Assembly: GCA_964016885.1 (NCBI GenBank)
Contig: OZ024744.1
Span: forward strand, 31,930,001 to 31,993,923
DNA from: Eledone cirrhosa
Lineage: Eukaryota
DNA: 63,923 bases
Direction: 5' to 3'
Position numbers and translations under genes: made by a program. Shown here piece after piece: positions 2 through 63,923 of this stretch; the first letter of the stretch is position 1, and each line of letters starts with the position of its first letter. The notes beneath the pieces are model-generated. The model was not told the DNA's origin. It saw nothing but the letters and a program-made list of their open reading frames with translations, and ran no database searches.

Positions 2-34
2 CTGAAGATTGCGAAAGCATGAAAGTACTTGTTC
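2..34 (+). ncRNA. Minimal type I hammerhead ribozyme (5' strand of stem I lies outside the window)
   Basis: CTGAAGA-t-TGC gaaa GCA-t-GAAA-GTAC(palindromic stem III)-TT. Confidence 0.6.
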
Positions 35-2785: not shown

Positions 2786-3370
2786 ATATAAGTATGTACA
2801 CGTACATACATATATGTATACAGACGTACAGTAGTATGTATATATATATATACATACATGCACACATATATATATGTACGTATGGATTCACCGAACATTT
2901 ATTATAATGCTCGGTGTGTTTATAAACAAACATCCCTTATTAAGCCGTAGTGTCTAGCAACCATCGTTGCTCGTTTGTTCAACACTGACAAAGGAACGCT
3001 GTACTAGTTTCAAGCTTATTAGCTATCGTCAGCAACGTATACCTTCCTGCCATATTGTTGAACGTATATACTTACCTTATGCATATTAACGGCTGAGTAG
3101 ACCAATTTGCATATCGAGTGGGTTAATCGGCCCGGTGCACCGAAAATGATAAGCGGAAAAAATGAAACGAAATTTCATTTCCCACTCTTAGTACGGCTGT
3201 TACTTAAATATAAGTATGTACACGTACATGCATATATGTATATAGACGTACAGTAGTATGTGTATATATATACATACTACTATACGTCTGTATACATGTA
3301 TGTATGTACGTATACATATATGTATATACTAAGAGTGGGAAATGAAATTTGGTTTCATTTTTTCCGTTTA
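2786..3370 (-). mobile_element. Family B non-autonomous HHR element (~425-nt unit plus inverted end)
   Basis: Terminal direct repeat (agtatgtaca at 2791 and 3213), inverted piece 3270-3370, (TA)n flanks. Confidence 0.8.
2996..3038 (-). ncRNA. Type I hammerhead ribozyme, family B
   Basis: rc: acgttg CTGACGA t agc taataa gct t GAAA ctag TA cagcgt. Confidence 0.85.
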
Positions 3371-3402
3371 TATATATATATATAAATATATACAATCATA
3401 TA

Positions 3403-3444
<42 letters not shown>

Positions 3445-3591
3445 AAATAGGATTTCGCTTCAAGTATGGCTTTATACAATATGTATAAATATTTCGTATC
3501 TCCAAAGAAATACAGTTTTAGGAAGCCGTAGCTATGCAAACACCGGGGGGCTAACGCCCTCTGGTGATGCCCAGCAGAAGCAAGGGGGACA

Positions 3592-3635
3592 ACCGTCTAT
3601 GCATTTCAGGCTTAACTGGCCTTCGTCAGGACGGT
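3592..3635 (-). ncRNA. Type I hammerhead ribozyme, family A
   Basis: Exact reverse complement of 3802-3845. Confidence 0.9.
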
Positions 3636-3801
3636 CCCTCCCACGCTATGCTTGAAGCGAAATCTTATTTCTTTTTTATTATAAGTTGAGCCAACTTATG
3701 CAGCTTCATATGCAAATGAGATTAATCACCTCATTTACGCAGACGAGAAAAGTATATATTCTCAGCTGCCTTCTAGTCCAGCAGTCGCAAGCGATGGGGG
3801 G

Positions 3802-3845
3802 ACCGTCCTGACGAAGGCCAGTTAAGCCTGAAATGCATAGACGGT
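3802..3845 (+). ncRNA. Type I hammerhead ribozyme, family A
   Basis: accgtc CTGACGA aggc cagttaa gcct GAAA tgca TA gacggt: perfect 6-bp stem I, 4-bp stem II, palindromic stem III. Confidence 0.92.
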
Positions 3846-3984
3846 TGTCCTCCTTGCTTCTGCTGGACATCACTAGAGGGCGTTAGCCCCCCGGTGTTTG
3901 CATAGCTACGGCTTCCTAAAACTGTATTTCTTTGGAGTTACGAAATATTTATATATATATATATATATATATGTGTATGTATAT

Positions 3985-4492
3985 ATAAGTATGTATACGT
4001 ACATACATATATGTATACAGACGTACAGTATCATGTATATACATACATGCACACATATATATATGTACGTATGGGTTTACCGGACATTTATTATAATGTT
4101 CGGTTTGTTTGTAAACAAACAGCCCGAATTACGCCGTACAGTGTTCGGCAACCATGGTCGCCCTTTCGTTCAACACTGACACAGGAACGATGTACTAGTT
4201 TCAAACTTATTAGCTATCGTCAGCATCGTACGTCAGCCGATTGAACGTTTGAAAGTATATACTTTCCTTATGCATATTAACGGCTGAGCAGCCTAATTTG
4301 CATATCGAGTGAGTTAGTCGACCGGGTGTACCGAAAACGATAAATGGAAAAGCATGAAATGAAATTTCATTTCTCACCCTTAGTACGGCTGATACTTAAA
4401 TATAAGTATGTATACGTACATACATATATGTATACAGACGTACAGTAAGAGTGAGAAATGAAATGAAATTTCATTTCATTCTTTTCTTTTCC

Positions 4493-5369: not shown

Positions 5370-6130
5370 ACGCACATATATATATGTATACAGACGTATA
5401 CAGTAGTATGTATATATATACATACATGCACACATATATATATGTACGTATGGATTTACCGAACATTTATTATAATGCTCGGTGTGTTTGTAAACAAACA
5501 TCCCGAATTAAGCCGTAGTGTCTAGCAACCATCGTTGCTCATTTGTTCAACACTGACAAAGGAACGATGTACAAGTTTCAAGCTTATTAGCTATCGTCAG
5601 CATCGTATACCTTCCTGCCAGATGATTGAACGTCTGAAAGTATATACTTTCCTTATTCATATTAACGACTAAGCAGCCTAATTTGCATATCTAGTGAGTT
5701 AATCGGCCAGGCGTACCGAAAACGATAAACGGAACAAATGAAACGAATTTCATTTCTCACTCTTAGTACGGCTGTTACTTAAATATAAGTATGTACACGT
5801 ACATACATATATGTATACAGACGTACAGTAGTATGTATATATATATATATACAAACATATATCGTTCCTTTGTCAGTGTTGAACAAACGAGCAACGGTGG
5901 TTTCTAGACACTACGGCTTAATACGGGATGTTTGTTTGCAAAAACACCGAGCATTATAATAAATGTTCGGTGAATCCATACGTACATATGTGTGCATGTA
6001 TGTATATATATATATACATACTACTGTACGTCTGTATACATATATGTATGTACGTGTACATACTTATATTTAAGTAATAGCCGTACTAAGAATGGGAAAT
6101 GAAATTCGTTTCATTTTTTCCGTTTATATA
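5365..6130 (-). mobile_element. Family B element (HHR 5564-5606) plus inverted partial copy 5860-6130
   Basis: Period ~427 (cagacg at 5391 and 5818); core CTGACGA/GAAA/TA on the minus strand. Confidence 0.8.
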
Positions 6131-7469: not shown

Positions 7470-8388
<919 letters not shown>

Positions 8389-8412
8389 GACGTTCAACTG
8401 GCAGGAAGGTAT

Positions 8413-8455
8413 ACGTTGCTGACGATAGCTAACAAGCTTGAAACTAGTACAGCGT
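8413..8455 (+). ncRNA. Type I hammerhead ribozyme, family B
   Basis: acgttg CTGACGA t agc taacaa gct t GAAA ctag TA cagcgt. Confidence 0.85.
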
Positions 8456-8494
8456 TACTTTGTCAGTGTTGAACAAACGAGCAACGATGGTTTA

Positions 8495-10184: not shown

Positions 10185-11841
10185 TAATGGAAAAATTTGA
10201 ACAGGGATAAAACAGAGAGGCAGTACAACGAATGTTTATTAATTTCACGCTCTGGAGAGTGGGGTGTTGCTGGGGGACGACGTTTCGGGCATAAGCCCTT
10301 CCTCAGGTGAGAAGTGTGTGGGAACAGAGTTCAAAGGGTGTGTAGGGGAGTGGTGGAGAGACATATAGCGAAAGGAAACGGTGCGAATGAAAACAATAAA
10401 AATAAAATTAAAAATAAAGCATGATCAAAATACAAGGAATGAAATAAATTTAAATATAAAAGCATGATCAAAATAAACTGAAATTAAAAGGGGGGTAAAA
10501 CAGGTGGTGGAAGGGTGTGGGTGTGTAGGGGTGGCGGCGGGTGGAGTGGGGAGAGGGAGACGGGGTGTCCGAGCGGGGAGTGTGTAGGTGTACGTCTGTG
10601 TGTGTGTGTGTATGTGAAAGTAAGGGTTGGGGGAAGAACAGGGTTGCATGTTCATGAAGAGGTGTGTGTGTGTGTGGGGGGGGAGAGGAATTAGGAGGCT
10701 GAGGGTGTAAATATGTGGTGGAAAGCACGTGTGTGTGGGGTTTAAGCGTGTTGTGGGTGTAGGTGGCGTGTGGATAAAAAAAATGTTTTGGGGTGTGTGT
10801 GTGTGGGTGAGTTATATAGGTGATTACGTAAGAGGATGGTTGAAAAGTTGGTAAAATCCGAAGGTGTTTAGTGGATTCTGTGGTGGTCAATTTCTGCGTG
10901 CGAGTATTCCATGAAGCGATGGTCGGAAGAGGAGAGATGTGGGGTGCGCGCGCAACAGGAAGTGGTCAAGCAGTGGGAGTGCTGTGTGTCTGTTTGTGCT
11001 GGGAGGTGGTCAGAGGGCATAGCAGCAGTCGGTGGAATGGTAAAGGAGCGAGGATGGGTAGGTGTGAAAGTTGGAGTGAGGAGGGTGTGTGTGTGTGTGT
11101 ATTAGTAGAGGTGTTAGTGGGATGAGTGAGTGTGGAGCGAGGGTGTGGGTGGAGCGGGGAGAGAAGTGTGTGTGTGGTCGTATGGAGGGAGTGTGGTGTA
11201 CTGGTGTGTGTAGTTTGATGAAGGGGTGTTAGTATACGGGAGGTGGGGAGGGGTTGAATGCAGGTGTGAGTGGGGGTTAGCAGTGGTAGGGTGTGTAGAG
11301 TTGGTGGTGTACGAGGGTGTGTGGGTACGTGTGCGTGGGGTTGAGGGGTGTTAGTGATGTTAGTTGCGTGTGGGGTGGGTGGTGTAAGTGGGTGCGTGTG
11401 TTCGTGTGCTTGGGGTTAGGGGGTGTTAGTGAGGTTAGTTTCGGGGTGGTGGGATGGAGGTGTGGGGGTGAGGGTTAGTGGTGGTAGTAGGGTGTGTGTT
11501 TAGTGTGAGCGCGTGTATATATGTGCCGGTGGGTGTGTGCGTGTGATAAGGAGGGGGGAGGAGGAGAAGAAGGGAGGGATGTTAGTATGTTAGTTGGGGA
11601 AGGGTGGTCAGCTGAGGGGTGAAGTGGAGGTATTAGTATTGTTAGTTGTGGGGTGGGCGGTGAAAAGGAGGGGTGTGTTAGTGGTGGATAAGTGTGGGGG
11701 GAGGGGGGCGGTCGAAGGCCAAAGGAATAAGGGTGTGGAATTCAGGCCGGGGGAAGTGTGGGTCTGTAAGATGAAGATAGTTCGTTGTTCGACCCTAAGG
11801 CGATTGGCGGGTGTTCCGTGGCACTGGAGTAGGCCACAGAC
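10185..11841 (-). mobile_element. 3' part of a canonical PLE (family C): GIY-YIG C-terminus, long C/A-rich UTR, pLTR with HHR at 10275-10310
   Basis: rc of ~11739-11841 reads VCGLLQCHGTPANRLRVEQRTIFILQTHTSPGLN (PLE EN C-terminal L.T..P.GLN motif); rc CTGAGGA a gggc ttat gccc GAAA cg TC; homologue at 36620-38140. Confidence 0.75.
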
Positions 11842-11872
11842 TATCTTTCTATCTATCTGTCTATCTCTACCC

Positions 11873-11908
<36 letters not shown>

Positions 11909-11927
11909 ATATATCTCTTTCTGTCTG

Positions 11928-12018
<91 letters not shown>

Positions 12019-12036
12019 CTCTCTCTCTCTCTCTCT

Positions 12037-12110
<74 letters not shown>

Positions 12111-12147
12111 CTATCTACCTATCTATCTATCTATCTATCTATCTCTA
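11842..12147. repeat. (CT)n/(CTAT)n microsatellite
   Basis: Direct reading. Confidence 0.95.
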
Positions 12148-12364
12148 CGATGGACACATGTGCTGAGCTCGCTCGGTAAGTTTTGTTTAAATTCATACGA
12201 AAATTGTAAACTGTAAACTTTCATTTTTGTACCATTTTGTAGAGGGACTGCCAGGTCAAACTTTGATCTGGTCGGTCTCTCAAAATATTCTGCGCCTTTG
12301 GGTGATATAGTATTGTAAACATTTTATCTTTCGAAAAACTTCGAAAAACCCTATTTTGAGAAAA

Positions 12365-14205
12365 ATGGCTGAAGCATCTTCACCATCAATCAAAGAAGGA
12401 AAGGGGAAGTCATACTCACAGCTTCCCCCTGCCACTGTCACAGCAGCAGATGCCAAAAGCAGAGGTCAGAGAGAGGAAGAATTGTCTTCACCTGTTGACC
12501 GACCACTAGATGTAGCCACAACTACACAAGAAATTGAAAACAACAACAACAACAACGACAACAACAGCAACAATAAAGACAACAAAAACAACAACAACAC
12601 AAACGTCACAAGTATCCACACACCAAACGAGAACGACAACAACAACAACAAAGATGAAAACAACTCAAACGACGAGAAACAAAACAATACAAACACCAAC
12701 AACGAAAACAAAATATCTTTTGCACAAACGACTAAATTATCAGTCGCTTATGTGCTGGAAGATATTTCAAAAGCCAAAGAAATGCTGGAAAAAGCCAAAA
12801 AATATGTATCTTTTGGCGAAAACGGTTCGTTTTCTATACATTCACCTCCAGAACTAAAAAAACAGACGGAATTACGAACTGTCGTATTCCGGACAATTTT
12901 AAATAAAACAAAAAAACCAGCACAACCATCTCAAGCTGAAATTCAGTTAGTACTGAAAGAAGCGATTAGAGACATCACTTTTATACAAAAGGATAAACTC
13001 TATGGGAGTTTATCCATATTGATGAAAGACGAATTGGCGGCGAAAAAATACTCTGTGTCGCCAATTCGTTCCACACACTACACCTTCTTCCCCACCTACA
13101 TGGGTAAAAAACCCCAGAGGATATGGATAACCACCATCACCCCAAACATAAACTAGTGGTGGTTACTAACCAGTTTCCTCAATTTAGACGAGGACAACCT
13201 CATTTCAATAGGGAAGGCATCCGGCGACGCGTTCAGTGGAACGCGCATCGAAGTTCTGACCCAAATAAGGCCAGAACGCATCGCCCAAATCCCTGAGCGC
13301 GTCATGCTGGATGACCGTACCCACCTCAACATTATTGTGGAGGGTAGGCCTCCCTCCTGTTACCTCTGTGGCAATAGAGGTCACCTGAGGGCTGCCTGTC
13401 CCCAGCTCACACAGAAAAAAACACTGCTACCAACACCAACACCACCCCAACTACAACAACAAAAACAACCACAACAACAACAACAACAACAAAAAACAAC
13501 AACCACACCACCACCACCACCACAACAACAACAACAAACACGTGAAAAAATAACACAGAATACTGTCCCACCCAATCCCTCCCCACCCAAAACAAATACA
13601 AAAACACACACACCGCAAACACTACCAGAAAACATACCCCTCCCACCCAACAAGGAAGACGAACCCCTTTCGTCGCAAGACGAAAAAGATCCCTTCCAAC
13701 AAGTAAAAAGAAAGAAGAGGAGACGCACCACAAACACACATGTTAACTTTAACCCCCCACCCAAGAGAACACAAACTACACACAAACCACCCCTCTCTGT
13801 CACACAACACTAACTGCTACACAAAAAAAAGACCTTACAATACACATACATGAACACAGACAACAAAGAATTACGGAAAACAATTTCAGCAAACCCTTCG
13901 GTCCAAACTGAAGGGCCAAACTTTATAACTGCTGTGGGACTACCTCATTTAAAAATGATAAAAGTCCCAATGAACTTGTACAAAACACTGAAAATAAATT
14001 TCACGGAGGACGTGGGCCCCCCCCCTGCGCCAAACCAATCAACCGCGTCCTCCTAAAAAATTCACCCCCCACCCCACCCAGACACCCACTCAACCACAAA
14101 CACACCGATGCCCCTTCACTTCCACAAACCACCACCCCACCCAACAACCCATCCCCAACCAGCATGGAAATTGAGCGGCCCGTTTCCCGGGACGCAGAAA
14201 GGTAA
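12365..14205 (+). pseudogene. Tx1 ORF1 (gag-like, zinc knuckle), interrupted by stops
   Basis: CYLCGNRGHLRAAC knuckle after IIVEGRPP; Asn/Gln/Pro low-complexity tracts; stops at ~13154, 13811, 14054. Confidence 0.75.
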
Positions 14206-14229
14206 GTGCCTTTTCTCCATACCACCAAC

Positions 14230-17200
14230 ATGGCTGTGCTAAGAGTAGGGTGTCTAAATGCGCGTGGCCTGGGTTCGTCTTGGAAGCAAGAAATGCTTCT
14301 AAATGACCTCAGGTCACAATCTATAAATGTGATGGTTATCTGCGAGGCCCGGATCAGCAGCATGCGACAGCTAGCCCCCACCATTGACGACTTTGAGATG
14401 CACGCATCTCTCTGACAGCTTGGAGGTGGGGTGGGGTTGTCGTTCTGCTGCAAAAACATATGGGCCTTGCAACACAGATAGTTCACTTGGACCCAGGGTG
14501 TCGACTGGTGGTGCTGGACCTTGGCAGTGGTGAAGGTGGAGCCTTTAGGCTGTAGCCGCATATGCCCCTTTTGGGACAGAGCGGCCCGACTTTTTCCAGC
14601 GTCTGGAGTCTTTTCTAGGGACGTCCCGTTCCCTGCTTTTAGTGGGGGATTGGAATGGTATCCTGGATGCACGTTGGGACTATGCAGGGGCATGTCCCGA
14701 CAGAGAGGGGTGCAACTGCCTCAAGGGGTTACTCGGCCGATTTGACCTGGCCGATAGATTTCGACTAGATTTTCCGACGGTGCCAACCTGGTCTTGGTCA
14801 AATCGCAGCGGATCATCTAGGTCGTACCTAGATAGATTTTTAGTTAGAAATAAGGACAGGGACTTTTTAAGTTGTCCAGAAATGCTCATGGTTGGCTATT
14901 CAGACCACAAGTTGGTGACCTGCATGGTCAACCTTGATAGAACGCATAGACAGGGCCCCGGTTACTGGAAGCTCAACTTGTCCTTGCCGGCAAGTAGAGC
15001 CTACAGGGATCGGATTAGTACGTTAGTTAAGGAACGATTGACTGGAGCGATCGTCAACAGCAGGTGGTGGGTATCTCTAAAGAGAGAGATTAGAGTAGTC
15101 TCGATAGAATTTAGTAAGGTTCTAGCTGCGGATAGGAATAGGAAGGAAAGGGAGCTAATAGATAGAGTAGAAGAGGCAATTAGAAGCGGCGACGTGGCCA
15201 GAGTGCTAGCGTCGAGAACGGCTTTGAGACAGTTTTTCGACGCGAAGCACGAAGGCTGCGTTGTCCGAAGTAAAATACGTGCTCTAGGGAACGAGGGGAC
15301 CAAAGCTGTTAGCTGGGCCCGCGTGACAGAGGCCAACGGTGGAACTAAATCCACTATCCGGTCTTTGCGAGACGTGGATGGACTGGCGATTCTTGAGCCT
15401 AGGCAGATGTGTGAGGCCTTTCAAAGGCACTTTGCCCGACTGTTCGGGAGGGGCGGGGAGCCGGTTGGGAACGTGGACTTCGGTCCATACCTCGACGGCC
15501 TGCCGCGTCTCTCGGACAGGGAGGCGAAGTCATGCGAGGAGCCGATTTCGGCCGCTGAGATAGAGATCGTGCTGGGCCAATGCGGCAAACGCAAATCCCC
15601 GGGTCTCGATGGTCTTCCTTACGAATTATATCTAGCTATGCCGGACTTGTTCCCCGATCTCCTCGAGGCGGTCTACTGCAACTGGCAACAGAACGGGAGA
15701 ATTCCCTGTACTGTGACCAAGGGCGTAGTCACGCTAGTGAGGAAGGACGAGAACAAGGGGGACGAAATAAGTAACTTCAGGCCCATAACTCTGCTAAATA
15801 CAGAGTTACAGATTTTGGCCAAGGTGCTAGCAAAGAGGTTGGCGCTTGTCGTGGGCAACCTGGTGGGAGATGCGCAGACATGCGCTATCCCGTCCAGGTC
15901 CATCCATGATAACCTCCACCTCATGCGATACATCATAGAGAGGGTTGGGAACGAACCCGGCTTTGGTGGGGCTCTGATCAACTTGGATCAATCTAAGGCG
16001 TTCGATAGGGTCGACCATGGTTACCTGGATGCGGTGCTAGCGGCGGCAGGCTTCTGACCCGTTTTCAGGGGCTGGATCACTGCTATGCACAGCAGCCACA
16101 TCTGCTCTAGGGTCAAGGTGAACGGCTACCTCTCGGAGCCGTTCAAAATCGCGCGGTCCATCCGACAAGGGTGCCCTCTCTCCTCCCTTCTGTATGTGTT
16201 GACTCTCGAGCCACTACTGCGGAAGTTGGAGTTGTTGCAGGGCATCCCTTTGGAACCGGGATTGCGAAAAGCGGTGTCGGCCAACGCCGATGACGTGACA
16301 GTAATGGTGTCGACGGCCTCCGAAATCGAGGCGGTCGGCACCTTACTGGAGGAGTACGAAAGGTTCACAGGGGCTAAGCTGAACCGGGACAAGTCGATCG
16401 GTTTGCAACTCGGCACGTGGAGGGGCAGACCGATGCCCTCCGATGGCGTCGTCGGACGCTGGACGGAGGGCCCGGTGAAGTTGCTCGGGGTCTGGTTCGG
16501 ACCGGACCTCCAGGTGGAGAAAAACTGGGCGGAGGTTACGAACAGGGTGTTTGCACTGACCCAAAAGTGGGCCAGTTGCAAACTATCGCTGAAAGGTTGA
16601 GCGGAGGTGGGGTGGCGAACACCTATATAGCGTCCGTCATCTACTACCGCCTGACCGTAGTGCCCTGCCCAAGGGAAACCCTCACCAAGATGGAGCGCGC
16701 ACTCTTCCAATTCCTTTGGAAGAGGCGGGCTCCTATGGTGAGGAGATCCATCTGCTGTCAACACCCTTCGAAAGGAGGGCTGGGGATGCCGTGGCTAATG
16801 ATGCGTAAACACGCATTAAGGCTACGGCACCTCTACGTATTCCTCACCGGTCAACCGGTGTGGGCCTCGTTTGTGAGACGAACCTTTCCCAGACTCGTCT
16901 CACTCACCGAGCTGCAATCCTGGGTCAAGCAAAGACCGAGAAAACTGGGCGCTTGGCACACTGAGTGTGCCCAGGCGCTCACCGCCCTCTGGCAGGCGGA
17001 TCCGGTTATCAGTGGAGACTCCACCGCAACATTCTATAGAGGGCTGGTACGCAGCCCTCGGAGAAGCCCTAGACATGGAGGAGGACGAACTGGCCAGCCT
17101 GTTCGGTAGGACATTCGGCCCAGGACCTATGGACAACTTCCAGAAGTCCCTGGCCTGGCAGTGCTACCGAGGGGCTCTACCCGTTCGAGAAAAGCTCTAC

Positions 17201-17400
17201 AGACACGGGCGCCCGGGTAGGGACCCCGCCAAAAAGATCTGTCCTAGATGCGTGTGCGACGAGGAAACCGTTGCACACGCATTGGTACACTGCTCGGGCG
17301 TAGCCGATCTGTGGGGCTATGTCGAACAACTGCTGTCAAGGGTGGGACCGATCCGGTTGACCACCGAGTCTATTGTAATGATTAACCACCTCCCCCCTTC
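14230..17400 (+). pseudogene. Tx1 ORF2: APE endonuclease, reverse transcriptase, C-terminal CCHC; frameshifted
   Basis: CLNARGL, GDWN, YLDRFL, SDH, KSPGLDGL, NFRPITLLN, LDQSKAFDRVDH, RQGCPLS, NADD, GGLGMP, CPRC..ETVAHALVHC. Confidence 0.92.
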
Positions 17401-17404
17401 AAAG

Positions 17405-19170
17405 ATGAACAACACATCAGAGACGGTGGATTAATTAGAAATGTACCAACACATGAGAGACAGTGGATTAATAAGAAATTTAACCAACACATCAGAGACG
17501 GTGGATTAATTAGAAATGTACCAACACATGAGAGACAGTGGATTAATTAGAAATTTACCAACACATGATGGACGGTGGATTAATTAGAAATTTACCAACA
17601 CCTGAGAGACGGTGGATTGATTAGAAATTTACCAACACATGAGAGACAGACGGTGGATTAATTAGAAATTTACCAACACCTGAGAGACGGTGGATTAATT
17701 AGAAATGTACCAACACATGAGAGACGGTGGATTAATTAGAAATTTACCAACACATGAGAGACAGACGATGGATTAATTAGAAATTTAACCAACACATGAG
17801 AGACGGTGGATTAATTAGAAATTTAACCAACACCTGAGAGACGGTGGATTAATTAGAAAGTTACCAACACATGAGAGACAGACGGTGGATTAATTAGAAA
17901 TTTAACCAACACCTGAGAGACGGTGGATTAATTAGAAATGTACCAACACATGAGAGACGGTGGATTGATTAGAAATTTAACCAACACCTGATGGACGGCG
18001 GATTAATTAGAAATTTAACCAATACATGATGGAGGGCGGATTAATTAGAAACTTAACCAACACCTGAGAGACGGCGGATTAATTAGAAATTTAACCAGAT
18101 ACCAACACCTGATGGAGGGCGGATTAATTAGAAATTTAATCAGGTAGCAACACCTGATGGAGGGCGGATTAATTAGAAATTTAACCAAGTACCAACACCT
18201 GATGGAGGGCGGATTAATTAGAAATTTAAGCAGGTAGCAACACCTGATGGAGGGCGGATTAATTAGAAATTTAAGCAGGTAGCAACACCTGATGGAGGGC
18301 GGATTAATTAGAAATTTAACCAGATCCCAACACCTGATGGGGGGCGGATTAATTATAAATTTAACCAGGTAGCAACACCTGATGGAGGGCGGATTAATTA
18401 TAAATTTAAGCAGGTAGCAACACCTGATGGAGGGCGGATTAATTAGAAATTTAAGCAGGTAGCAACACCTGATGGAGGGCGGATTAATTAGAAATTTAAC
18501 CAAGTACCAACACCTGATGGAGGGCGGATTAATTAGAAATTTAACCAAGTACCAACACCTGATGGAGGGCGGATTAATTAGAAATTTAACCAAGTACCAA
18601 CACCTGATGGAGGGCGGATTAATTAGAAATTTAACCAAGTACCAACACCTGATGGAGGGCGGATTAATTAGAAATTTAACCAAGTACCAACACCTGATGG
18701 AGGGCGGATTAATTAGAAATTTAACCAAGTACCAACACCTGATGGAGGGCGGATTAATTAGAAATTTAACCAAGTACCAACACCTGATGGAGGGCGGATT
18801 AATTAGAAATTTAACCAAGTACCAACACCTGATGGAGGGCGGATTAATTAGAAATTTAAGCAGGTAGCAACACCTGATGGAGGGCCGATTAATTAGAAAT
18901 TTAACCAGATACCAACACCTGATGGAGGGCGGATTAATTAGAAATTTAAGCAGGTAGCAACACCTGATGGAAGACGGATTAATTAGAAATTTAACCAGAT
19001 ACCAACACCTGATGGAAGGCGGATTAATTAGAAATTTAAGCAGGTAGCAACACCTGATCGAGGGCGGATTAATTAGAAATTTAACCAGGTAGCAACACCT
19101 GATGGAGGGCGGATTAATTAGAAATTTAACCAGGTAGCAACACCTGATGGAGGGCGGATTAATTAGAAAT
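17405..19170. repeat. Minisatellite: 37-42-bp units grading into 45-bp units
   Basis: Unit accaacacctgatggagggcggattaattagaaatttaaccaagt; about 8 identical units near 18480-18840. Confidence 0.95.
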
Positions 19171-19363
19171 TCACTATGATTTGTTATTCATTTAAAATAT
19201 TTTTGTTTGTTGTTAGTTTCTTTTTTTTTCTGTTTTCTTTTTATATATTAACATTCAGAGTTTTGCTGACACAGGACGAGCCTACATGGACGTAAACATA
19301 TATATGGGGGGTCACCTTTTTGAAAGGGTACGTCAATATCTATTTGTAAACTGTTATATATTG

Positions 19364-19555: not shown

Positions 19556-19596
<41 letters not shown>

Positions 19597-19598
<2 letters not shown>

Positions 19599-19959
19599 CC
19601 GTTCATCGTTTTCGGTGCGCCCGGCAGATTAACTCACTCGATATGCAAATTAGGCTGCTCAGCCGTTAATATGCATAAGGAAAGTATATACTTTCAGACG
19701 TTCAATCATCTGACAGAAAGGTATACGATGCTGACGATAGCTAATAAGCTTGAAACTAGTACATCGTTCCTGTGTCAGTGTTGAACAAAAAGGGCGATGA
19801 TGGTTGCCGAGCACTGTACAGCATAATTCGGGCTGTTCGTTTACAAACAAACCGAACATTATAATAAATTTTCGGTAAACCCATACGTACATGTATATAT
19901 GTGTGCATGTATACATACTACTGTGCGTCTGTACACATATATGTATGTACATATACATA

Positions 19960-21129: not shown

Positions 21130-21605
21130 AAAGAAATAGGATTTCGCTTCAAGCATAGCTTTATACAATATATATAAATATTTTGTATCTCCAAAGAAAT
21201 ACAGTTTTAGGAAGCCGTAGCTATGCAAACCGCAAGGGGCTTACGCCCTCTGGTGATGTCCAGCAGAAGCAAGGGGGACAACCGTCTATGCATTTCAGGC
21301 TTAACTGGCCTTCGTCAGGACGGTCCCGCCCACCGCTTGTGACTGCTGGACTAGAAGACAGGCGAGAATATATACTTGGGGCGTTAGCCCCCCGGTGTTT
21401 GAATAGCTACGGTTTCCTAAAACCATATTTCTTTGGAGATACGAAATATTTATACATATTGTATAAAGCTATGCTTGAAGCGAAATCCTATTTCTTTTTT
21501 ATTATAAGTTGAGCCAACTTATGCAGCTTCATATGCAAATGAGATTAATCACCTCATTCACACAGACGAGAAAAGTATATATTCTCGCCCGTCTTCTAGT
21601 CTAGC
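21130..21605. mobile_element. Family A element, inverted pair; HHR at 21281-21324 (-)
   Basis: Homologous to 3441-3953; HHR identical to 3592-3635. Confidence 0.85.
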
Positions 21606-21667
21606 AATCTAAAGACATTTTTTCCAATTCCATCCCGCCCGTCCCTTTAATCTATCTAATTTCTCAT

Positions 21668-23537: not shown

Positions 23538-24120
23538 AAAAATGAAGCGAAATTTCATTTCTCACTCTTAGTACGGCTGTTACTTAAATATAAGTATGTA
23601 TACGTACATACATATATGTATACAGACGTACAGTAGTATGTATATATGTATATATATATATACATACATGAACACATATATATATATATGTACGTATGTA
23701 TTCACCGAACATTTATTATAATGCTCGGTGTGTTTTTAAACAAACATCCCGAATTAAGCCGTAGTGTCTAGCAACCATCGTTGCTCATTTGTTCAACACT
23801 GACAAAGGAACGCTGTACTAGTTTCAAGCTTATTAGCTATCGTCAGCAACGTATACCTTCCTGCCAGATGACTGAACGTCTGAAAGTATATACATTCCTT
23901 ATGCATATCAACGGCTGAGCAGCCTAATTTGAATATCGAACGAGTTAATCGGCCGGGCGTACCGAATACGATAAACGGAAAAAAATGAAACGAAATTTCA
24001 TTTCCCACTCTTAGTACGGCTGTTACTTAAATATAAGTATGTACCCCTACATACAGAGTGAGAAATAAAATCTCGTTTCATTTTTTCCGTTTATCGTTTT
24101 CGGTACCCCGGCCGATGAAC
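23530..24120 (-). mobile_element. Family B element (HHR 23810-23852), ~1.2 units plus inverted end
   Basis: ctcttagtacggctgttacttaaatataag repeated at ~23565 and ~24008; inverted piece 24055-24120. Confidence 0.85.
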
Positions 24121-28319: not shown

Positions 28320-28492
28320 GTAAGGTACTCAATGTATTTGTAGCGTGTAAACAAGTTTAATATAGAAATGGCTTCTACACGACTAGAACTGTTTCATTCG
28401 AAAGAAATCATCAGGAAAGCCTGGAAAGCCTGATGATTTCTTTCGAATGAAACAGTTTTAGTTCTGTAGAAGCCATTTCTATATTAAACTTG
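28320..28492. mobile_element. Inverted pLTR pair with back-to-back HHRs (28370-28421 minus; 28430-28474 plus)
   Basis: CTGATGA t ttc tttc gaa t GAAA cag..ctg TA gaagcc on both strands; arms 28352-28415 and 28429-28492. Confidence 0.8.
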
Positions 28493-38227: not shown

Positions 38228-38388
38228 ATAAGTACCAAATAGTACGAAACAGAGCTCTGTCAGGTTTATCTCCCCCTGTTTGCGGAAAATTTAAAGTGAG
38301 ACTGTCACTACTCTAAAACAATAGCATAAGGTCTTCAAAATGCTTTTAATTAAGCATACAGTGTATTGCAAAATACACTATATATACA

Positions 38389-38476
<88 letters not shown>

Positions 38477-50710: not shown

Positions 50711-51186
50711 ATAAATGGAAAAGAATGAAACGAAATTTCATTTCTCACTCTTAGTACGGCTGATACCTAAATATAAGTATGTATACGTACATACATATAG
50801 TACAGACATACAGTAGTATGTATATATACATACATTCACACATATATATATGTACGTATGGGTTTACCGAACATTTATTATAATGTTCGGTTTGTTTGTA
50901 AACAAACAGCCCGAATTACGCCGTACAGTGCTCGGCAACCATCGTCGCCCTTTTTGTTCAACACTGGCACAGGAACGGTGTACTATTTTCAAGGTTATTA
51001 GCTATCGTCAGCATCGTATACCTTCCTGTCAGTCGATTGAACGTTTGAAAGTATATACTTTCCTTATGCATATTAACGGCTGAGCAGCCTAATTTACATA
51101 TCGAGTGAGTTAGTCGGCCGGGCGTACCGAAAACGATAAATGGAAAAGAATGAAACGTTAATATGCATAAGGAAAGTATATACTTT
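50711..51186 (-). mobile_element. Family B element (degenerate HHR at 50975-51017)
   Basis: ataaatggaaaagaatgaaacg at 50711 and 51136 (period 425); inverted end 51157-51186. Confidence 0.85.
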
Positions 51187-52043: not shown

Positions 52044-52817
52044 TAATTTAATATATCTACTAACATAAGCGCACAGATGTACGCTAATGCCAGCAAATAC
52101 ACAGGTTATGTCATAGTACCTAGGTGGTTCAATGCAGGAGGATGCAGAACAATAATATAAAAGACGTAAAATAAGAAAATTTTTTTTTTTAAATTTAAAA
52201 AAAATTTACTTACTTACTTAAATTTTCACTCCAACTAATTAGTTTCTGCAATGGGATAAAGACAGTTACGTAATGAACTGTTGAGAATTTCATTATATAT
52301 ATATATATGTATATATGTATATATGTATATGACATGTATATATATATATGCATATATGTACGTATGCACCTATATATATATATATATATATGTATTTGTA
52401 TATGTATGTACATACACATATAATACAATGAATAACAAACGAAATAAACTATAAAAATATTTAAAAAATAAAAACATGTAAACCAAAAAAGAAATAAAAG
52501 CCTGTTTCTCAGAATATTTTTTGTTATATTTTTTGTTATATTTTTTGTTATATTTTTGATTTGTTTTATTTATTTTTCGTTCTTAAATTATTTTGTTTGA
52601 ATTCTGAGATAAATTTAAAAAAATGTAGAATAACCTAAGGTCGTTGACACTGTGGGAAATGTAACTCTCTCTCTGTCTCTCTCTCTCTCTCTAACTCTCT
52701 CCCTCTCTCAATCTCTCTCTCTAACTGTCTCTCTCTCTCACTCTCTCTCTCTAACTGTCTCGCTCTCCCTAACTCTCTCTCTCTCACTCTCTCTCTTTAA
52801 CTATCTCTCTCCTTAAC

Positions 52818-52902
<85 letters not shown>

Positions 52903-52923
52903 TATCATAAATATAACTATCAC

Positions 52924-52997
<74 letters not shown>

Positions 52998-56853: not shown

Positions 56854-56907
<54 letters not shown>

Positions 56908-57154
56908 ACTCTTTCTTTCTCTAACTATCAACCTCTCTCGCTCTCTAATTCATTCTCTCTCTCGCTCACTGTCTCTCTCTCTTTCTCTCTCTATATATAA
57001 CTCTTTCTTATTCTCTTTTACTCTGTCTTTCACTCTCCTGTGATTCTCAGTGTCTCTGTTTCCCTCTCTGCAACTCTTTCTTTCTCAATATCACTCTTTA
57101 TATATTTATATATCCCTCTCTGAGTAACCCTGTCTCTCTATATCCCTCTATCTC

Positions 57155-57771
57155 TCACTTTGTTGTAACTCTCTCTCACTGTTGTATCTCTTACTTTCTT
57201 TCTCACTCTCTCTCTGTGTTGTAACTCTCTCTCACTGTTGTATCGCTTACTTTTTTTGTCATTCTCTCTCTCTGTTGTAACTCTCTCTCACTGTTGTATC
57301 TCTTACTTTCTTTCTCACTCTCTCTATCTTTCTCTCTTTCTCTGTTGTAATGCTCTCTCACTGTTGTATCTCTTACTTTCTTTCTGACTCTCTCTCTCTC
57401 TCTGTTGTAACTCTCTCTCACTGATGTATGTCTTACTTTCTTTCTGACTCTCTCTCCCTCTCTCTGTTGTAACTCTCTCTCAGTGTTGTATCACTTACTT
57501 TCTTTCTCACTCTCTCTCCCTCTCTCTGTTGTAACTCTCTCTCTCACTGTTGTATCATTTACTTTCTTTCTCACTCACTATATCTCTGTTGTAACTCTCT
57601 CTCACTGTTGTATTTCTTTCTTTCTTTCTTTCTCACTCTCACTCCCTCTCTCTCTGTTGTAACTCTCTCTCGCGGTTGTATCTCTTTATTTCTCGCTTTC
57701 TCCCTCTCTCACTGTGGTATCTCTTATTTTCTAACTCTCTCTGTCAGTTGTATCTCTTTCGTTTCTTTACA

Positions 57772-57803
<32 letters not shown>

Positions 57804-58217
57804 TCGCTCTCTCACTCTCTCTCTCTCCCCTTTCTCTCTCTCTCGCTCTCTCTCTCTCTATCTCTCTCTCTCTGTTGAACCTCTCTCTCACTGTTGTATC
57901 TCTTACTTTCTTTTACACTCTCTCTCACTCTATTGTAATACTCTCTCACTGTTGTATCTCTTATTTTGTTTCTCACTTGCTCTTTCCCTCCGTTGTAACT
58001 CTCTCTTACTGTTGTATCTCTTACTTTCCCTCTCTCTCACTGTTATATCTCTTACTTTTTCAATCTCACTCTATCTCTCCCTCTGTTGTAACACTCTCTC
58101 ACTGTTGTATCTCTTACTTTCCCTCTCTGTCACTGTTATATCTCTTACTTTTTCACTCTTTCTCTCTCTCTCTCTCTTGTAACTCTCTCTCTCACTGTTG
58201 TATCTATTAAATTCTTT

Positions 58218-58254
<37 letters not shown>

Positions 58255-58540
58255 GTAACTCTCACTCACTGCTGTATCTCTTACTTTATTTCCCACTCTC
58301 TCTCTCTCTGTTGTAACTCTCTCTCACTGTTGTATCTCTTACTTTCTTTCTCATTCTCTCTCTCTCTCTCCCTCTCTCTGTTGGAAGTCTCTCTCACTGT
58401 TGCATCACTTATTTTCTTTCTCACACTCTCTCTCTCTCTCTATTGTAATTCTCTCTCACTGTTGTAGCTCTTACTTTCTTTCTCCCTCTTTCTCTCTATG
58501 TTGTAACTCTCTCTAACTATTGTATCTCTTACGTTCTTTC

Positions 58541-58580
<40 letters not shown>

Positions 58581-59698
58581 CTCTCTCTCTTTCTCCCTCT
58601 CTCTCTCTCTCTCTCTTGTATCTCTTACTTTCCCTCTCTCTATATATCTCTCTCTGTTGTAACTCTCTCTCTCTCACTGTTGTATCTCTTACTATCATTC
58701 TCACTTTCTCTCTCTCTCTGCTGTAACTCTCTCTCACTGTTGTATTTCTTACTATCTTTCTCACTTTCTCTCTCTCTCTGCTGTAACTCTCTCTCACTGT
58801 TGTATTTCTTACTATATTTCTCACTTTCTCTCTCTCTCTGCTGTAACTCTCTCTCACTGTTGTATTTCTTACTATCTTTCTAACTTTCTCTCTCTCTCTG
58901 CTGTAACTCTCTCTCACTGTTGTATTTCTTACTATCTTTCTCACTTTCTCTCTCTCTCTGCTGTAACTCTCTCTCACTGTTGTATTTCTTACTATCTTTC
59001 TCACTTTCTCTCTCTCTCTCTCTCTCTCTGCTGTAACTCTCTCTCACTGTTGTATTTCTTACTATCTTTCTCACTTTCTCTCTCTCTCTGTTGTAACTCT
59101 CTCCCACTGTTGTATTTCTTACTATCTTTCTCACTTTCTCTCTCTCTCTGTTGTAACTCTCTCCCACTGTTGTATTTCTGTCTCACTGTTGTATCTCTTA
59201 CTTTCTTACTTTCTTTCTCACTCTCTCTCTCTCTCTCTGTTGTAACTCTTTCTTTCTTTCACTCTCTCTCTCTCTCTTACTTTCTCACTCTCTCTCTCCC
59301 TGTTGTAACTCTCTCTCACTGTTGTATCTCTTTATTTCTCGCTTTCTCCCTCTCTCTCTGTGGTATCTCTTATTTTCTCACTCTCTCTCTCTGTTGTATC
59401 TCTTTAGTTTCTTTCTCTCTCTCTCTCTCGCTCTCTCTGTTGAACCTCTCTCTCACTCTATTGTAATACTCTCTCACTGTTGTATCTCTTATTTTGTTTC
59501 TCACTCGCTCTCTCCCTCTGTTGTAACTCTCTCTCACTGTTGTATCTCTTACTTTCTCTCTCTGTCACTGTTATATCTCTTACTTTTTCACTCTTACTCT
59601 CTCTGTTGTAACCCTCTCTCACTGTTGTATCTCTTTCTTTATTTCTCTCTCTCTCTCTTCTCTCACTCTCTCTCTCTCTCTCTCTCTGTCTCTATGTC

Positions 59699-59731
<33 letters not shown>

Positions 59732-59836
59732 GTTGTAACTCTCTCTCACTGTTGTATCTCTTACTTTCTTTCTCACTCACTCTCTCTCTGTGTTGTAACT
59801 CTTCATCACCGTTGTATCTCTTACTTCCTTTCCCAT

Positions 59837-59867
<31 letters not shown>

Positions 59868-60520
59868 TGTAGCTCTTACTTTCTTTCTGAATATCTCTCT
59901 CTTTCTCTGTTGTAACTCTCTCTCTCTCACTGTTGTATCTCTTACTTTCTTTCTCACTCTCTCTCTCTCTCTCTCTGCAGTAACTCTCTTTCACTGTTGT
60001 ATATCTTACATTCTTTCTCAATCTCTCTCTCTCTCTGTCTGTAGTAACTCTCTCTCACTGCTGTATCTCTTACTTTCTTTGTCATTCTTTCTCTCTGTTG
60101 TAACTCTCACTCTCTCTCTCTCTGTGATGTAACTCTTCATCACCGTTGTATCTCTTACTTCCTTTCCCACTCTCTCTCACTCTCTCTCGCTCTCCATCTT
60201 TCTCTGTTGTAACTCTCTCTCACTGTTGAATCTCTTATTTTCTTTCTCACTCTCTCTCTCTCACTCTCTTGTAACTCTCTCTCACTGTTGTATATCTTAC
60301 TTTCTTTCTCAGGCTAGCTCTCTCTCTGTTGTAACTCTCTGTCACTGTTGTAACTCTCTCTCACTGTTGTATCTCTTACTTTCTTTCTCACTCTCTCTCA
60401 CACTGTTGTAAACTCTCTCTCTCTTCTGTTGAAACTTTCCCTCACTCTGGTATAACTTACTTTCTTTGCCACTCTCTCTCATTCTGTTGTAACTCTCTCT
60501 CACTGTTGTATCTCTTACTT

Positions 60521-60574
<54 letters not shown>

Positions 60575-60844
60575 GTAACTCTCTCTCACTGTTGTGTCTC
60601 TTACTTTCTTTCTCTCTCTCTCAATCTCTATCTCTCTGTTGTAACTCTCTCTCACTGTTGCAGCTCTTACTTTCTTTCTGAATCTCTCTCCCTCTCTTTG
60701 TTGTAACTCTCTCTTACTGTTGTATCTCTTACTTTCTTTCTCACTCTCCCCTCTCTCTCTCTGTGGAAACTCTCTCTCACTGTTGTATTGCTTACTTTCT
60801 TTGTCATTCTCTCTCTCTCTCTCTCTCTGTGGTATCTCTTACTT

Positions 60845-60886
<42 letters not shown>

Positions 60887-60959
60887 TCTCTCTCTCACTC
60901 TCTCTCTCTCTGCTGTATCTCTGTCTCACTGTTGTATCTCTTACTTTCTTTCTCACTCA

Positions 60960-61018
<59 letters not shown>

Positions 61019-61121
61019 TGTAACTCTCTCTCACCGTTGCATCTCGTACTTTCTTTCTCACTCTCACTCTCTCTGTTGTAACCCTCTCTCACTGTTGTAT
61101 CTCTTACTTTCTTTCTCACAC

Positions 61122-61160
<39 letters not shown>

Positions 61161-61894
61161 TGTGACTCTTCCTTACCGTTGTATCTCTTACTTCCTTTCC
61201 CACTCTCTCTCAGTCTCTCTTTTGTAACTCTCTCTCACTGTGGTATCTCTTACTTTCTCTCACACTCTCTCTCTCTGTTTCAACTCTCTCTCACTGATGT
61301 ATCTCTTACTTTCTCACTGTCTCGAACTCTGTTGTAACTCTCTCTCTCTCTCATTGTTGTATATCTTACTTTCTTTCTCACTCTCTCTCTCTCTGTCTGT
61401 CTGTAGTAACTCTCTCTCACTGTTGTATCTCTTACTTTCTTTGTCATTCTCCCTCTCTGTGATGTAACTCTTCATCACCGTCGTATCTCTTACTTCCTTT
61501 CCCACTCTCTCTCACTCTCTCTCTCTATCTTTCTCTATTGTAACTCTCTCTCTCACTGTTGTATCTCTTACTTTCTTTCTCACTCTCTCTCTCTCTCACT
61601 CTGTTGTACTCTCTCTCACTGTTGTATATCTTACTTTCTTTCTCAGGCTAGCTCTCTCTCTGTTGTAACTCTCTCTCACTGTTGTAACTCTCTCTCACTG
61701 TTGTATCTCTTCCTTTCTTCTCACTCTCTCTCTCTCTCACTCTGTTGTAACTCTCTCTCACTGTTGTATATCTTACTTTCTTTCTCAGGCTATCTCTCTC
61801 TCTGTTGAAACCTCTCTCTCACTCTGGTATAACTTACTTTTTTTGCCACTCTCTCTCATTCTGTTGTAACTCTCTCTCACTGTTGTATATCTTA

Positions 61895-61964
<70 letters not shown>

Positions 61965-62287
61965 GTAACTCTCTCTCACTGTTATATCTCTTACTTTCTT
62001 TGCCACTCTCTCTCATTCTGTTGTAACTCTCTCTCACTGTTGTATCTCTTACTTTCTTTCTCTCTCTCTCAATCTCTATCTCTCTGTTGTAAATCTTTCT
62101 CACTGTTGCAACTCTTACTTTCTTTCTGACTCTCTCTCCCTCTCTTTGTTGTAACTCTCTCTTACTGTTGTATCTCTTACTTTCTTTCTCACCTCTCCCT
62201 CTCTCTCTCTGTGGAAACTCTCTCTCACTGTTGTATCGCTTACTTTCTTTGTCGCTCTCTCTCTCTCTCTGTCTGTGGTATCTCTTA

Positions 62288-62329
<42 letters not shown>

Positions 62330-62387
62330 CTCTCTCTCTGCTGTTTCTTCTGTCTCACTGTTGTATCTCTTACTTTCTTTCTCACTC

Positions 62388-62453
<66 letters not shown>

Positions 62454-63016
62454 TGTAACTCTCTCTCACCGTTGCATCTCGTACTTTCTTTCCCACTCTC
62501 ACTCTCTCTGTTGTAACCCTCTCTCACTGTTGTATCTCTTACTTTCTTTCTCTCTCTCTCTCTCTCTCTCTCCTCTCTCTCTCCTCTCTCTCTCTCTCTC
62601 GTACTGCTGTGCCTCTTACGTTCTCACTTTCTCTCTCTCTGTTGTAACTCTCTCTCCCGGTTGTATATCTTACTTTCTTTCTCCCTCTCTCTCTCTCTCT
62701 TTAACTCCCTCTTTCTCTGTATCTCTTACTTTCTTTCTCACTCTCTCTCTCTCTCTCTGCTGTAACTCTCTCTCACCGTTGCATCTCGTACTTTCTTTCT
62801 CACTCTCACTCTCTCTGTTGTAACCCTCTCTCACTGTTGTATCTGTTACTTTCTTTCTCACTCTCTCTCTCTCTCTCTCACTGCTGTACCTCTTACGTTC
62901 TCACTTTCTCTCTCTCTGTTGTAACTCTCTCCACCTGTTGTATATCTTACTTTCTTTCTCACTCTCTCACTCTCTCTTGTAATTCCCTCTATCTCTGGTA
63001 TCTCTTACTTTCTTTC

Positions 63017-63055
<39 letters not shown>

Positions 63056-63367
63056 TGTAACTCTTCATCACCGTTGTATCTCTCATTTCCTTTCCCACTC
63101 TCTCTCACTCTCTCTGTAAACTCTCTCTCACTGTGGTATCTCTTACTTTCTCTCACACTCTCTCCCTCTGTTGCAACTCTCTCTCACTGTTGTATCTCTT
63201 ACTTTCTCACTGTCTCTCGCTCTGTTGTAACTCTCTCTCTCACTGTTGTATATCTTACTTTCTTTCTCCCTCTCTCTCTCTGTGTTGTAACTATTCATCA
63301 CCGTTGTATCACTTACTTCCTTTCCCACACACTCTCTCTCTCCCTATCTCTCTCTCTCTCTCCATCT

Positions 63368-63437
<70 letters not shown>

Positions 63438-63545
63438 GTTGTAACTCTCTCTCACTGTTGTAGCTCTTACTTTCTTTCTGAATATCCCTCTCTCTCTCTG
63501 TTGTAACTCTCTCTCTCCCTGTTGTTTTATCTTACTTTCTTTCTC

Positions 63546-63583
<38 letters not shown>

Positions 63584-63847
63584 AACTCCCTCTGTCTCTG
63601 GTATCTCTTACTTTCTTTCTCACTCTCTCTCTCTCTGCAGTAAACTCTCTCTCACTGTTGTATCTCTTACTTTCTTTCCCACTCTCTCTCTGCCTATTTT
63701 GTAGCACTCTCTCACTGTTGTATCTCTTACTTTCTTTCTCACTCTCTCTCTCTCTGCTGTAACTCTCTCTCACCGTTGCATCTCGTACTTCCTTTCTCAC
63801 TCTCACTCTCTCTGTTTAACCCTCTCTCACTGTTGTATCTCTTACTT

Positions 63848-63890
<43 letters not shown>
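57155..63890. repeat. Complex pyrimidine-rich satellite (~50-70-bp unit with variable (CT)n)
   Basis: Unit ctctgttgtaactctctctcactgttgtatctcttactttctttctca(ct)n over 6.7 kb. Confidence 0.95.
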
Positions 63891-63892
<2 letters not shown>

Positions 63893-63923
63893 CGCCGATT
63901 TTTCGATACTCGATCTTTCTAAT

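Follow-up and report, generated by a model that had tools for sequence, protein, structure and literature searches.

A dispersed 322-nt hammerhead unit of Eledone cirrhosa carries the insertion signature of PLEs

Introduction

What is the hammerhead-bearing sequence at positions 3441-3953 of the window analysed here (63,923 nt of the Eledone cirrhosa genome assembly GCA_964016885.1), and what machinery copies it? The first-pass annotation had proposed a circularly permuted unit of an independent, retrozyme-like, non-autonomous element. Penelope-like elements (PLEs) are called a strong candidate for copying animal retrozymes in the consulted text of PMC7229834, and a PLE role is supported by co-occurrence and trees (bioRxiv 10.64898/2026.07.22.740005). 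The marks of PLE insertion given in the consulted text of PMC8557442 are an optional 30-40-nt tail, an inverted 5'-truncated copy and a bias towards microsatellites. In vitro, a PLE protein was shown to cut AT-rich DNA on both strands, to extend both, and to begin inside the RNA at two sites bounding the tail, hammerhead cleavage being dispensable (PMC11167929). The host genome is 3.0 Gb in size and contains many microsatellites.

Results

The locus is an inverted pair built from one 322-nt unit

The 322-nt unit, whose positions are numbered from window position 3645, consists of the plus arm that begins there, closed with 16 bases at 21452-21467. The arm runs from 3645 through the hammerhead, with its core at 3808, to an end in (TA)n at about 3953, just as first annotated. 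The proposed closure at about 322 nt was borne out as well: at 21440-21482 the arm end runs through 16 more bases into the unit start. The interval 3441-3953, annotated as a second hammerhead unit, does contain the unit but is really an inverted pair of arms that overlap by 3 nt at the inversion point (Table 1), and its minus arm already holds the head-to-tail junction, with two substitutions. An inverted pair makes up the second locus as well. There, the arm that shows the closure is the one lacking a hammerhead; it carries the junction at 21449-21482 and the promoter-like 11-mer at 21533, and its 3' end lies at neither of the two fixed sites, E1 and E2, described below.

The junction is not a one-off rearrangement, as it recurs genome-wide, is present in every subfamily and also turns up in a sequencing run from a second organism (2 contigs aligned; three runs inspected). 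No open reading frame of at least 100 codons was found inside the unit, the listed frames only running into the flanks or along the inverted arm. Across subfamilies the unit measures 322-338 nt and is non-coding, without LTR features. Frames elsewhere in the window encode LINE-type RT and endonuclease pieces, none of which adjoins the element (32 of 116 frames scanned). One LINE-type element (12311-17434), whose broken frames encode pieces of a zinc knuckle, an AP endonuclease, an RT and a zf-RVT domain, is followed by a 45-90-nt tandem repeat (17410-19171). A long low-complexity tandem region at 56855-63923 is related to 11840-12146 and 52648-52964.

Table 1. Coordinates of the family A insertions, their parts and related repeats (window positions unless a locus is named).
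Feature	Position	Strand	Basis and remarks
Left arm, first locus	3441..3647	-	Unit 146 -> 322 -> 30; 3' end is E2, adjoining (TA)n
Right arm, first locus	3645..3953	+	Unit 1 to ~309; 3' end is E1, adjoining (TA)n
(TA)n target run, left	3406..3441	.	Sequence
(TA)n target run, right	3950..3972	.	Sequence
Small palindromic hairpin	3441..3489	-	Holds E1 (3489-3471), the ~40-nt E1-E2 tail and the head-to-tail junction
Second hammerhead copy, left arm	3591..3636	-	Sequence
11-mer ATGCAAATGAG	3710..3720	+	Same sequence as the element that host U6 and RNase MRP genes carry at -76/-77; putative promoter function
TATA-like box	3753..3760	+	43 nt after the 11-mer; inferred
Predicted long stem prolonging helix I	3776..3870	+	Unit 132-226; folds, covariation
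Type I hammerhead	3801..3846	+	Sequence, folds, covariation; predicted cleavage
Left arm, second locus	21130..21377	-	Unit 106 -> 322 -> 30; E2 near (TA)n; hammerhead 21325-21280
Right arm, second locus	21379..21609	+	Unit 234 -> 322 -> 142; no hammerhead
310-nt relative	L310:2211-2912; L367-L395; fragment at 38321-38390		Sequence
Second hammerhead family, copies	2876-3371, 4065-4399, 5444-5807, 8378-8492, 19596-19890, 23690-24055, 50852-51157		
Further hammerhead-like families	2-24; 9008-9035/9887-9914; 10283-10306/38021-38044; 19372/33033/38582/56606; 28392-28452; 39805/42788/43383		

Insertions end at two fixed sites within (TA)n

Copies of this unit (family A) were mapped at 105 loci, comprising the 30 best matches, which are biased toward full length, 74 loci from the first 100 exact matches listed, and the second window locus. 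Nine loci were left out as overlapping, two of them (L087, L126) erroneously. The mapped set contained 72 simple inverted pairs, 30 one-directional copies and 3 complex arrangements. Their outer 3' ends were concentrated at two sites about 40 nt apart, which together accounted for 152 of 176 ends (77 at E1, 75 at E2, 24 elsewhere). E1 lies at unit 307-322, inside a small palindromic hairpin. E2 was placed at unit 22-44, but the alignments spill slightly into the adjoining TA run, by a few bases, and the true end is at about 28-33. A dinucleotide run directly adjoined 111/152 fixed ends versus 2/24 other ends.

The two sites were used in a nearly strict combination. Among the 72 inverted pairs, 47 joined an E1 end to an E2 end, one had E1 twice, two had E2 twice and 22 had one end elsewhere, so that E1 was matched with E2 in 47/50 pairs with both ends fixed (p=1.9e-11). 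The 5' ends were scattered across the unit, and the inversion points often overlapped by 1-4 nt. The longest arm per locus had a median of 336 nt and a maximum of 742 nt in the 105 loci, with an arm of 877 nt in a further set. The description "circularly permuted" is therefore half right, because 5' ends vary and 3' ends are fixed at two sites. Rare variants were common to opposite arms in 47/582 cases, as expected if both arms copy one source. Because the ends lie inside (TA)n, target-site duplications are unreadable. Fixed 3' ends, inverted pairs and (TA)n targets together constitute the PLE insertion signature.

The first-pass annotation had also suggested a search for tandem arrays. Head-to-tail copies do occur, but as a minority (25/285 arms cross two cut sites), and no long array of family A was present among the first 100 matches listed in each of three pattern searches.

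The hammerhead is embedded in a predicted stable fold and decays like the remainder of the unit

The hammerhead was called from its core and stems, Rfam returning no hammerhead match at gathering or E-value level. At 3801-3846 (+) it comprises a helix I of 7 bp, a full core, a helix II of 4 bp (3815-3818/3826-3829) with a 7-nt loop, and a helix III of 1-2 bp with a palindromic loop; cleavage is predicted after 3839. The two further window copies lie at 3636-3591 (-) and 21325-21280 (-). A canonical animal type I layout of this kind acts as a dimer, according to the consulted text of PMC4209133, and 8/9 predicted frog retrozymes failed to cleave (bioRxiv 10.64898/2026.07.22.740005). The whole unit is predicted to fold as a branched circle that leaves the hammerhead free, with z scores of -5.3 for the window unit and -6.8 for the majority sequence against 60 shuffles.

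The three window hammerheads are indeed identical, over 52 nt (3799-3850), and the chance of some identical 52-nt run in three copies is 0.5-16% depending on the assumed divergence, which makes it mildly unlikely. Reading this identity as selection did not hold. In 29 loci picked by whole-unit likeness, not by hammerhead, non-CpG differences were as frequent inside the hammerhead (46/2106) as outside it (248/11089, p=0.94), and counting CpG sites gave p=0.11. Since other copies show no excess conservation, the identical window hammerheads are no evidence for selection, and selection on the hammerhead at the level of individual copies was rejected. The copies decay neutrally after insertion.

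A 35-nt hammerhead pattern had 423 exact and 2,182 near-exact (up to 3 mismatches) genome matches, both counts being of arms and not insertions; the reversed control had none. In a Poisson fit, the 423/2,182 ratio agrees with about 5% decay per core site and about 2,400 copies. The copies are dispersed, and their flanks are unrelated or consist of other repeats at varying offsets.

Subfamilies covary in the ribozyme and the fold

Variant patterns revealed subfamilies A2 and A3, each about 5% from its own consensus; the corresponding value for A1, 3.3%, is biased low. Three older subfamilies, A4, A5 and A6 (4, 17 and 7 arms; 332-338 nt), lie 9-11% from consensus and are 77-86% identical to A1/A3, by consensuses that rest on few copies. 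All subfamilies are non-coding, and one and the same junction closes them.

Of the 13 positions at which A1 departs from A2/A3, 11 or 12 lie outside helices, according to which structure is used (p 5e-4 and 6e-5). For the 98 predicted pairs compared across five consensuses, 59 were invariant, 9 showed compensatory and 6 consistent changes, and 24 were broken in at least one subfamily; 6 of these 24 also covary and 7 come from a hairpin lost in A1. We rejected the reading of a 16-nt hairpin as an insertion in one subfamily, as it is ancestral and was lost in the two youngest. Compensatory changes affect 3/4 helix II pairs and 2/7 helix I pairs, with the core constant except at a free position, and the base of helix II is A-U in young subfamilies versus the usual G-C in older ones. 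It is this covariation between subfamilies, not the identity within the window, that argues for selection on the RNA fold and the ribozyme in propagating copies.

A promoter-like block matches upstream elements of host U6 and RNase MRP genes

Upstream of the hammerhead, the unit carries the 11-mer and the TATA-like box listed in Table 1. The octamer in this block was tested on host genes. In two U6 genes the 11-mer, whose position 9 is G or T, lies at -76/-77. In a U6 cluster, two distinct copies have a one-letter variant at -78 and one copy has no 11-mer; all five of these U6 genes have a TATA at -28 to -30. The single RNase MRP gene (1/1) has the 11-mer at -77 and a TATA at -30. None of 10 U1 upstream regions (0/10) contained the 11-mer, nor did any of 14 further U6 matches (0/14). 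The latter look like retrocopies, and many U6 matches (L349-L360) without upstream elements, in repeats or (TA)n, are probable retrocopies too. Host U1 genes (L337-L346) have a common TCAGT motif near -56, and 4/10 have a TATA-like box at -30, which is unusual for animal U1 genes. In families A and B, a tetramer similar to the TCAGT motif stands 26-27 nt before the TATA.

The distance from 11-mer to TATA is 43 nt in the unit versus 46-48 nt in host U6/MRP genes. Both elements stay unchanged across the five subfamily consensuses, including any in which the 11-mer pairs with an altered partner. The block arose in 1/200,000 shuffles, for a pattern chosen after the fact. By host spacing, transcription would start near 3783, 18 nt before helix I; 5' ends did not pile up at this predicted start (10 versus 7.25 expected, p=0.2). 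The youngest subfamily, A1, has 4-6 T at E2, and a T run of this length would tend to make polymerase III terminate ahead of the promoter block that follows.

The block with a hammerhead core downstream had 19,313 genome matches (control 0), mostly belonging to the second hammerhead family of the window and also to two more families. The second family is more abundant than family A and has the same promoter-like block with a 42-nt spacing. Two of its copies flank the 3441-3953 locus, and elsewhere (L364, L365) it occurs in arrays that comprise 4-6 units, each 466-500 nt long, and have an inverted arm. The two more families (L361:2462, L362:2476, L363:2454) combine the 11-mer with a TATA 40 and 47 nt behind it and, about 90-105 nt downstream, with a hammerhead-like core. 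At least six further hammerhead-like families lie within the window.

Arms run across the predicted cut site

Of 285 arms with a fixed end, 239 cross the cut site and 25 cross it twice, in a sample biased to intact hammerheads. In the same biased sample, 5' ends did not pile up at the cleavage site (2 versus 7.25 expected). Some arms span up to 2.7 units and run through the junction. These crossings, together with the lack of 5' ends gathered at the cut, fit a circle or an uncut multimer but not a cut linear monomer. Rare variants in common were found in 11/234 comparisons of successive passes within an arm versus 47/582 of opposite arms (p=0.10), and with this later count an apparent circle-versus-linear difference vanished. 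An excess of 5' ends at unit 128-158 and a peak at 292 were traced to sampling and alignment effects.

A 310-nt relative, 65% identical to family A over 227 nt and with 12,538 matches, has a different hammerhead and no 11-mer. Its insertions are inverted, with arms that can reach 12 or more units, and the ends checked lie at two fixed sites of its own, in (TA)n. Within each of three of its arrays, a comparison of 12, 6 and 9 units, respectively, showed differences of 0-1 bases. Such identical units would fit rolling-circle copying, and an array transcript would give the same result. This young relative is the best candidate in which to look for a circRNA.

The family A copies screened have no PLE gene attached

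The host genome contains 10,596 GIY-YIG candidates, of which 150 were scored. Fifty loci were read, and these include several families with an RT plus a GIY-YIG domain at the C terminus in open frames of 938, 844 and 1096 codons. None of the 50 loci, a small part of the 10,596 candidates, had sequence in common with the unit. We then screened about 220 family A loci (sets of 103, 16, 31, 40 and 29, with some overlap) with the proteins of the GIY-YIG loci as queries. Within this set no PLE gene had a family A copy as its terminal repeat, no arm reached 5' into a PLE frame, and no RT + GIY-YIG frame was attached. Constant attachment to an autonomous PLE is thus not seen in the loci screened, and the annotation as a retrozyme-like non-autonomous element stands, given the recurrent junction and the lack of an attached PLE gene in these loci. 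"Independent" applies to the sequence lineage and not to mobility, which bears PLE marks. An autonomous partner was sought through GIY-YIG loci, common flanks, variant patterns and the distant relative, and was found by none of these routes.

The ends of family A, about 118 and 162 nt past the core, have a geometry like that of one gene-linked PLE family (about 126 and 160-190 nt). Among eight copies of that family, two end 126 nt past the core, three meet TA runs at 160-189 nt and the remaining three pass into other sequence near the later point. The hammerhead-like family at window 2-24 corresponds to the 3' end of a gene-linked PLE family. Two family A arms touch PLE fragments: at L197:2721-3479 an arm abuts a PLE endonuclease fragment on the opposite strand, and at L263:2253-2700 a PLE RT fragment on the same strand begins right after E2. 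These single cases, from different PLE families, are nested insertions or template switches.

Discussion

Taken together, we consider it probable that the unit is an animal non-LTR retrozyme, likely transcribed from an snRNA-type promoter that it carries itself, and that the RT and endonuclease of a PLE likely copy it into (TA)n. A source copy longer than one unit would be transcribed from the 11-mer and TATA, starting just before the hammerhead and reading into the next unit. The resulting RNA multimer would perhaps be cut by paired hammerheads and closed into a circle. The PLE protein would then nick both (TA)n strands, with reverse transcription beginning inside the RNA, at E1 for one target end and at E2 for the other. 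Two cDNAs that stop variably, joined often at 1-4 nt of microhomology, would yield the inverted pair. Most copies would decay neutrally, and the few keeping promoter, fold and ends may found the next subfamily.

A quite possible variant, although we hold it with some doubt, keeps the same element and PLE helper and makes the template a closed 322-nt circle, produced by hammerhead cleavage and ligation and reverse-transcribed in rolling-circle fashion, as the published retrozyme model has it. In its favour, the predicted circular fold of the unit is good (z -5 to -7) and leaves the hammerhead free, there is covariation in the ribozyme, most arms cross the cut site and some do so twice, and the 310-nt relative forms arrays of identical units that end at its own two fixed sites; circRNAs are known for coral, mussel and axolotl retrozymes (consulted text of PMC7229834). 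However, an uncut linear multimer yields identical insertions, and the single PLE examined in vitro worked mainly on uncut RNA (PMC11167929). Family A arms are also short, and the counts of shared rare variants (p=0.10) do not tell the two templates apart.

It is improbable that the copies are broken-off pLTRs of an unsampled autonomous PLE, the junction being a by-product of partial tandem insertion. Every insertion mark is of PLE type, truncated PLE ends with hammerheads are common according to the consulted text of PMC4209133, the GIY-YIG loci examined number only 50, and L263 and L197 do contact PLE fragments. Yet past E2 the internal junctions always re-enter the same 100-nt non-coding body and lead back to the hammerhead, a continuity that holds in subfamilies up to 23% apart; the unit has no reading frame, and against the roughly 220 loci in which no arm enters a PLE frame stand two single contacts. 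A satellite- or SINE-like repeat, spread by DNA duplication or a LINE with the hammerhead as a passenger, seems very improbable: the unit shares with SINEs an internal promoter-like block, and the neutral decay after insertion agrees with it, but the copies are dispersed among unrelated flanks, mostly as inverted pairs, with two alternative 3' ends that have no A-rich tail and a hammerhead that covaries.

The PLE-copied retrozyme that we favour is not a new kind of system, as the literature already describes retrozymes, PLE tails and non-autonomous PLEs, and also a hammerhead repeat with an snRNA-type promoter. Compared with animal non-LTR retrozymes as described in the consulted text of PMC7229834, family A likewise has a non-coding unit in the 150-450-nt range, a type I hammerhead whose helix III is short and palindromic, a head-to-tail junction, low GC, a predicted circular fold that is stable, and coexisting PLEs. 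It differs from that description in being mostly dispersed inverted pairs of about one unit each, not long arrays, in its two mapped fixed 3' ends and in lacking a readable target-site duplication. Li, Clavereau and Pollet (2026, bioRxiv 10.64898/2026.07.22.740005) reached the same conclusion, that retrozymes are PLE-dependent, from co-occurrence and pLTR likeness; here the basis is the insertion signature, and no pLTR relative was found in 50 GIY-YIG loci.

PLE insertions, including those of the non-autonomous Chlamys MRC1 (Craig et al. 2021, consulted text of PMC8557442), have a 30-40-nt tail, inverted copies and 5' truncation, as family A does. Poseidon of Anolis initiates internally at two sites (Frangieh et al. 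2024, PMC11167929), which we liken to E1 and E2. AT-rich or microsatellite targets and ends about 100-160 nt behind the hammerhead are further likenesses to the PLEs in the consulted parts of PMC8557442 and PMC11167929; family A differs from them in having no reading frame, in a tail that leads into a promoter-like body and in the near-strict end pairing counted here. Newt satellite 2, with an snRNA-type internal promoter, and the schistosome hammerhead satellite, with a polymerase III promoter, are hammerhead repeats of about 330 nt as well (via the consulted text of PMC2220036). Unlike in these, as described there, the family A block matches the host U6/MRP element and TATA, and not the host U1 upstream region.

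Our literature search, mostly covering freely readable main texts, returned no paper mapping PLE tails on a retrozyme. Family A presents the PLE insertion signature on a retrozyme with no attached PLE gene in about 220 loci, and it supplies exact predicted RT start sites, a candidate promoter and a dated subfamily series. More speculatively, and on balance unlikely, family A might be a self-sufficient RNA parasite lineage. Each unit would carry a promoter captured from host U6/MRP genes, a hammerhead activated by dimerisation and two sites on which PLE RT can land, and would be inserted from circular RNA. The insertion would be the work of a PLE dimer, its two active sites starting 40 nt from each other, each from a different end of the cut target. 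If so, the 47/50 end pairing would be the first genomic read-out of PLE tail and inverted-repeat formation, and direct evidence of PLE proteins mobilising animal retrozymes in trans. With a 322-nt substrate, the helper, promoter and circle hypotheses become testable.
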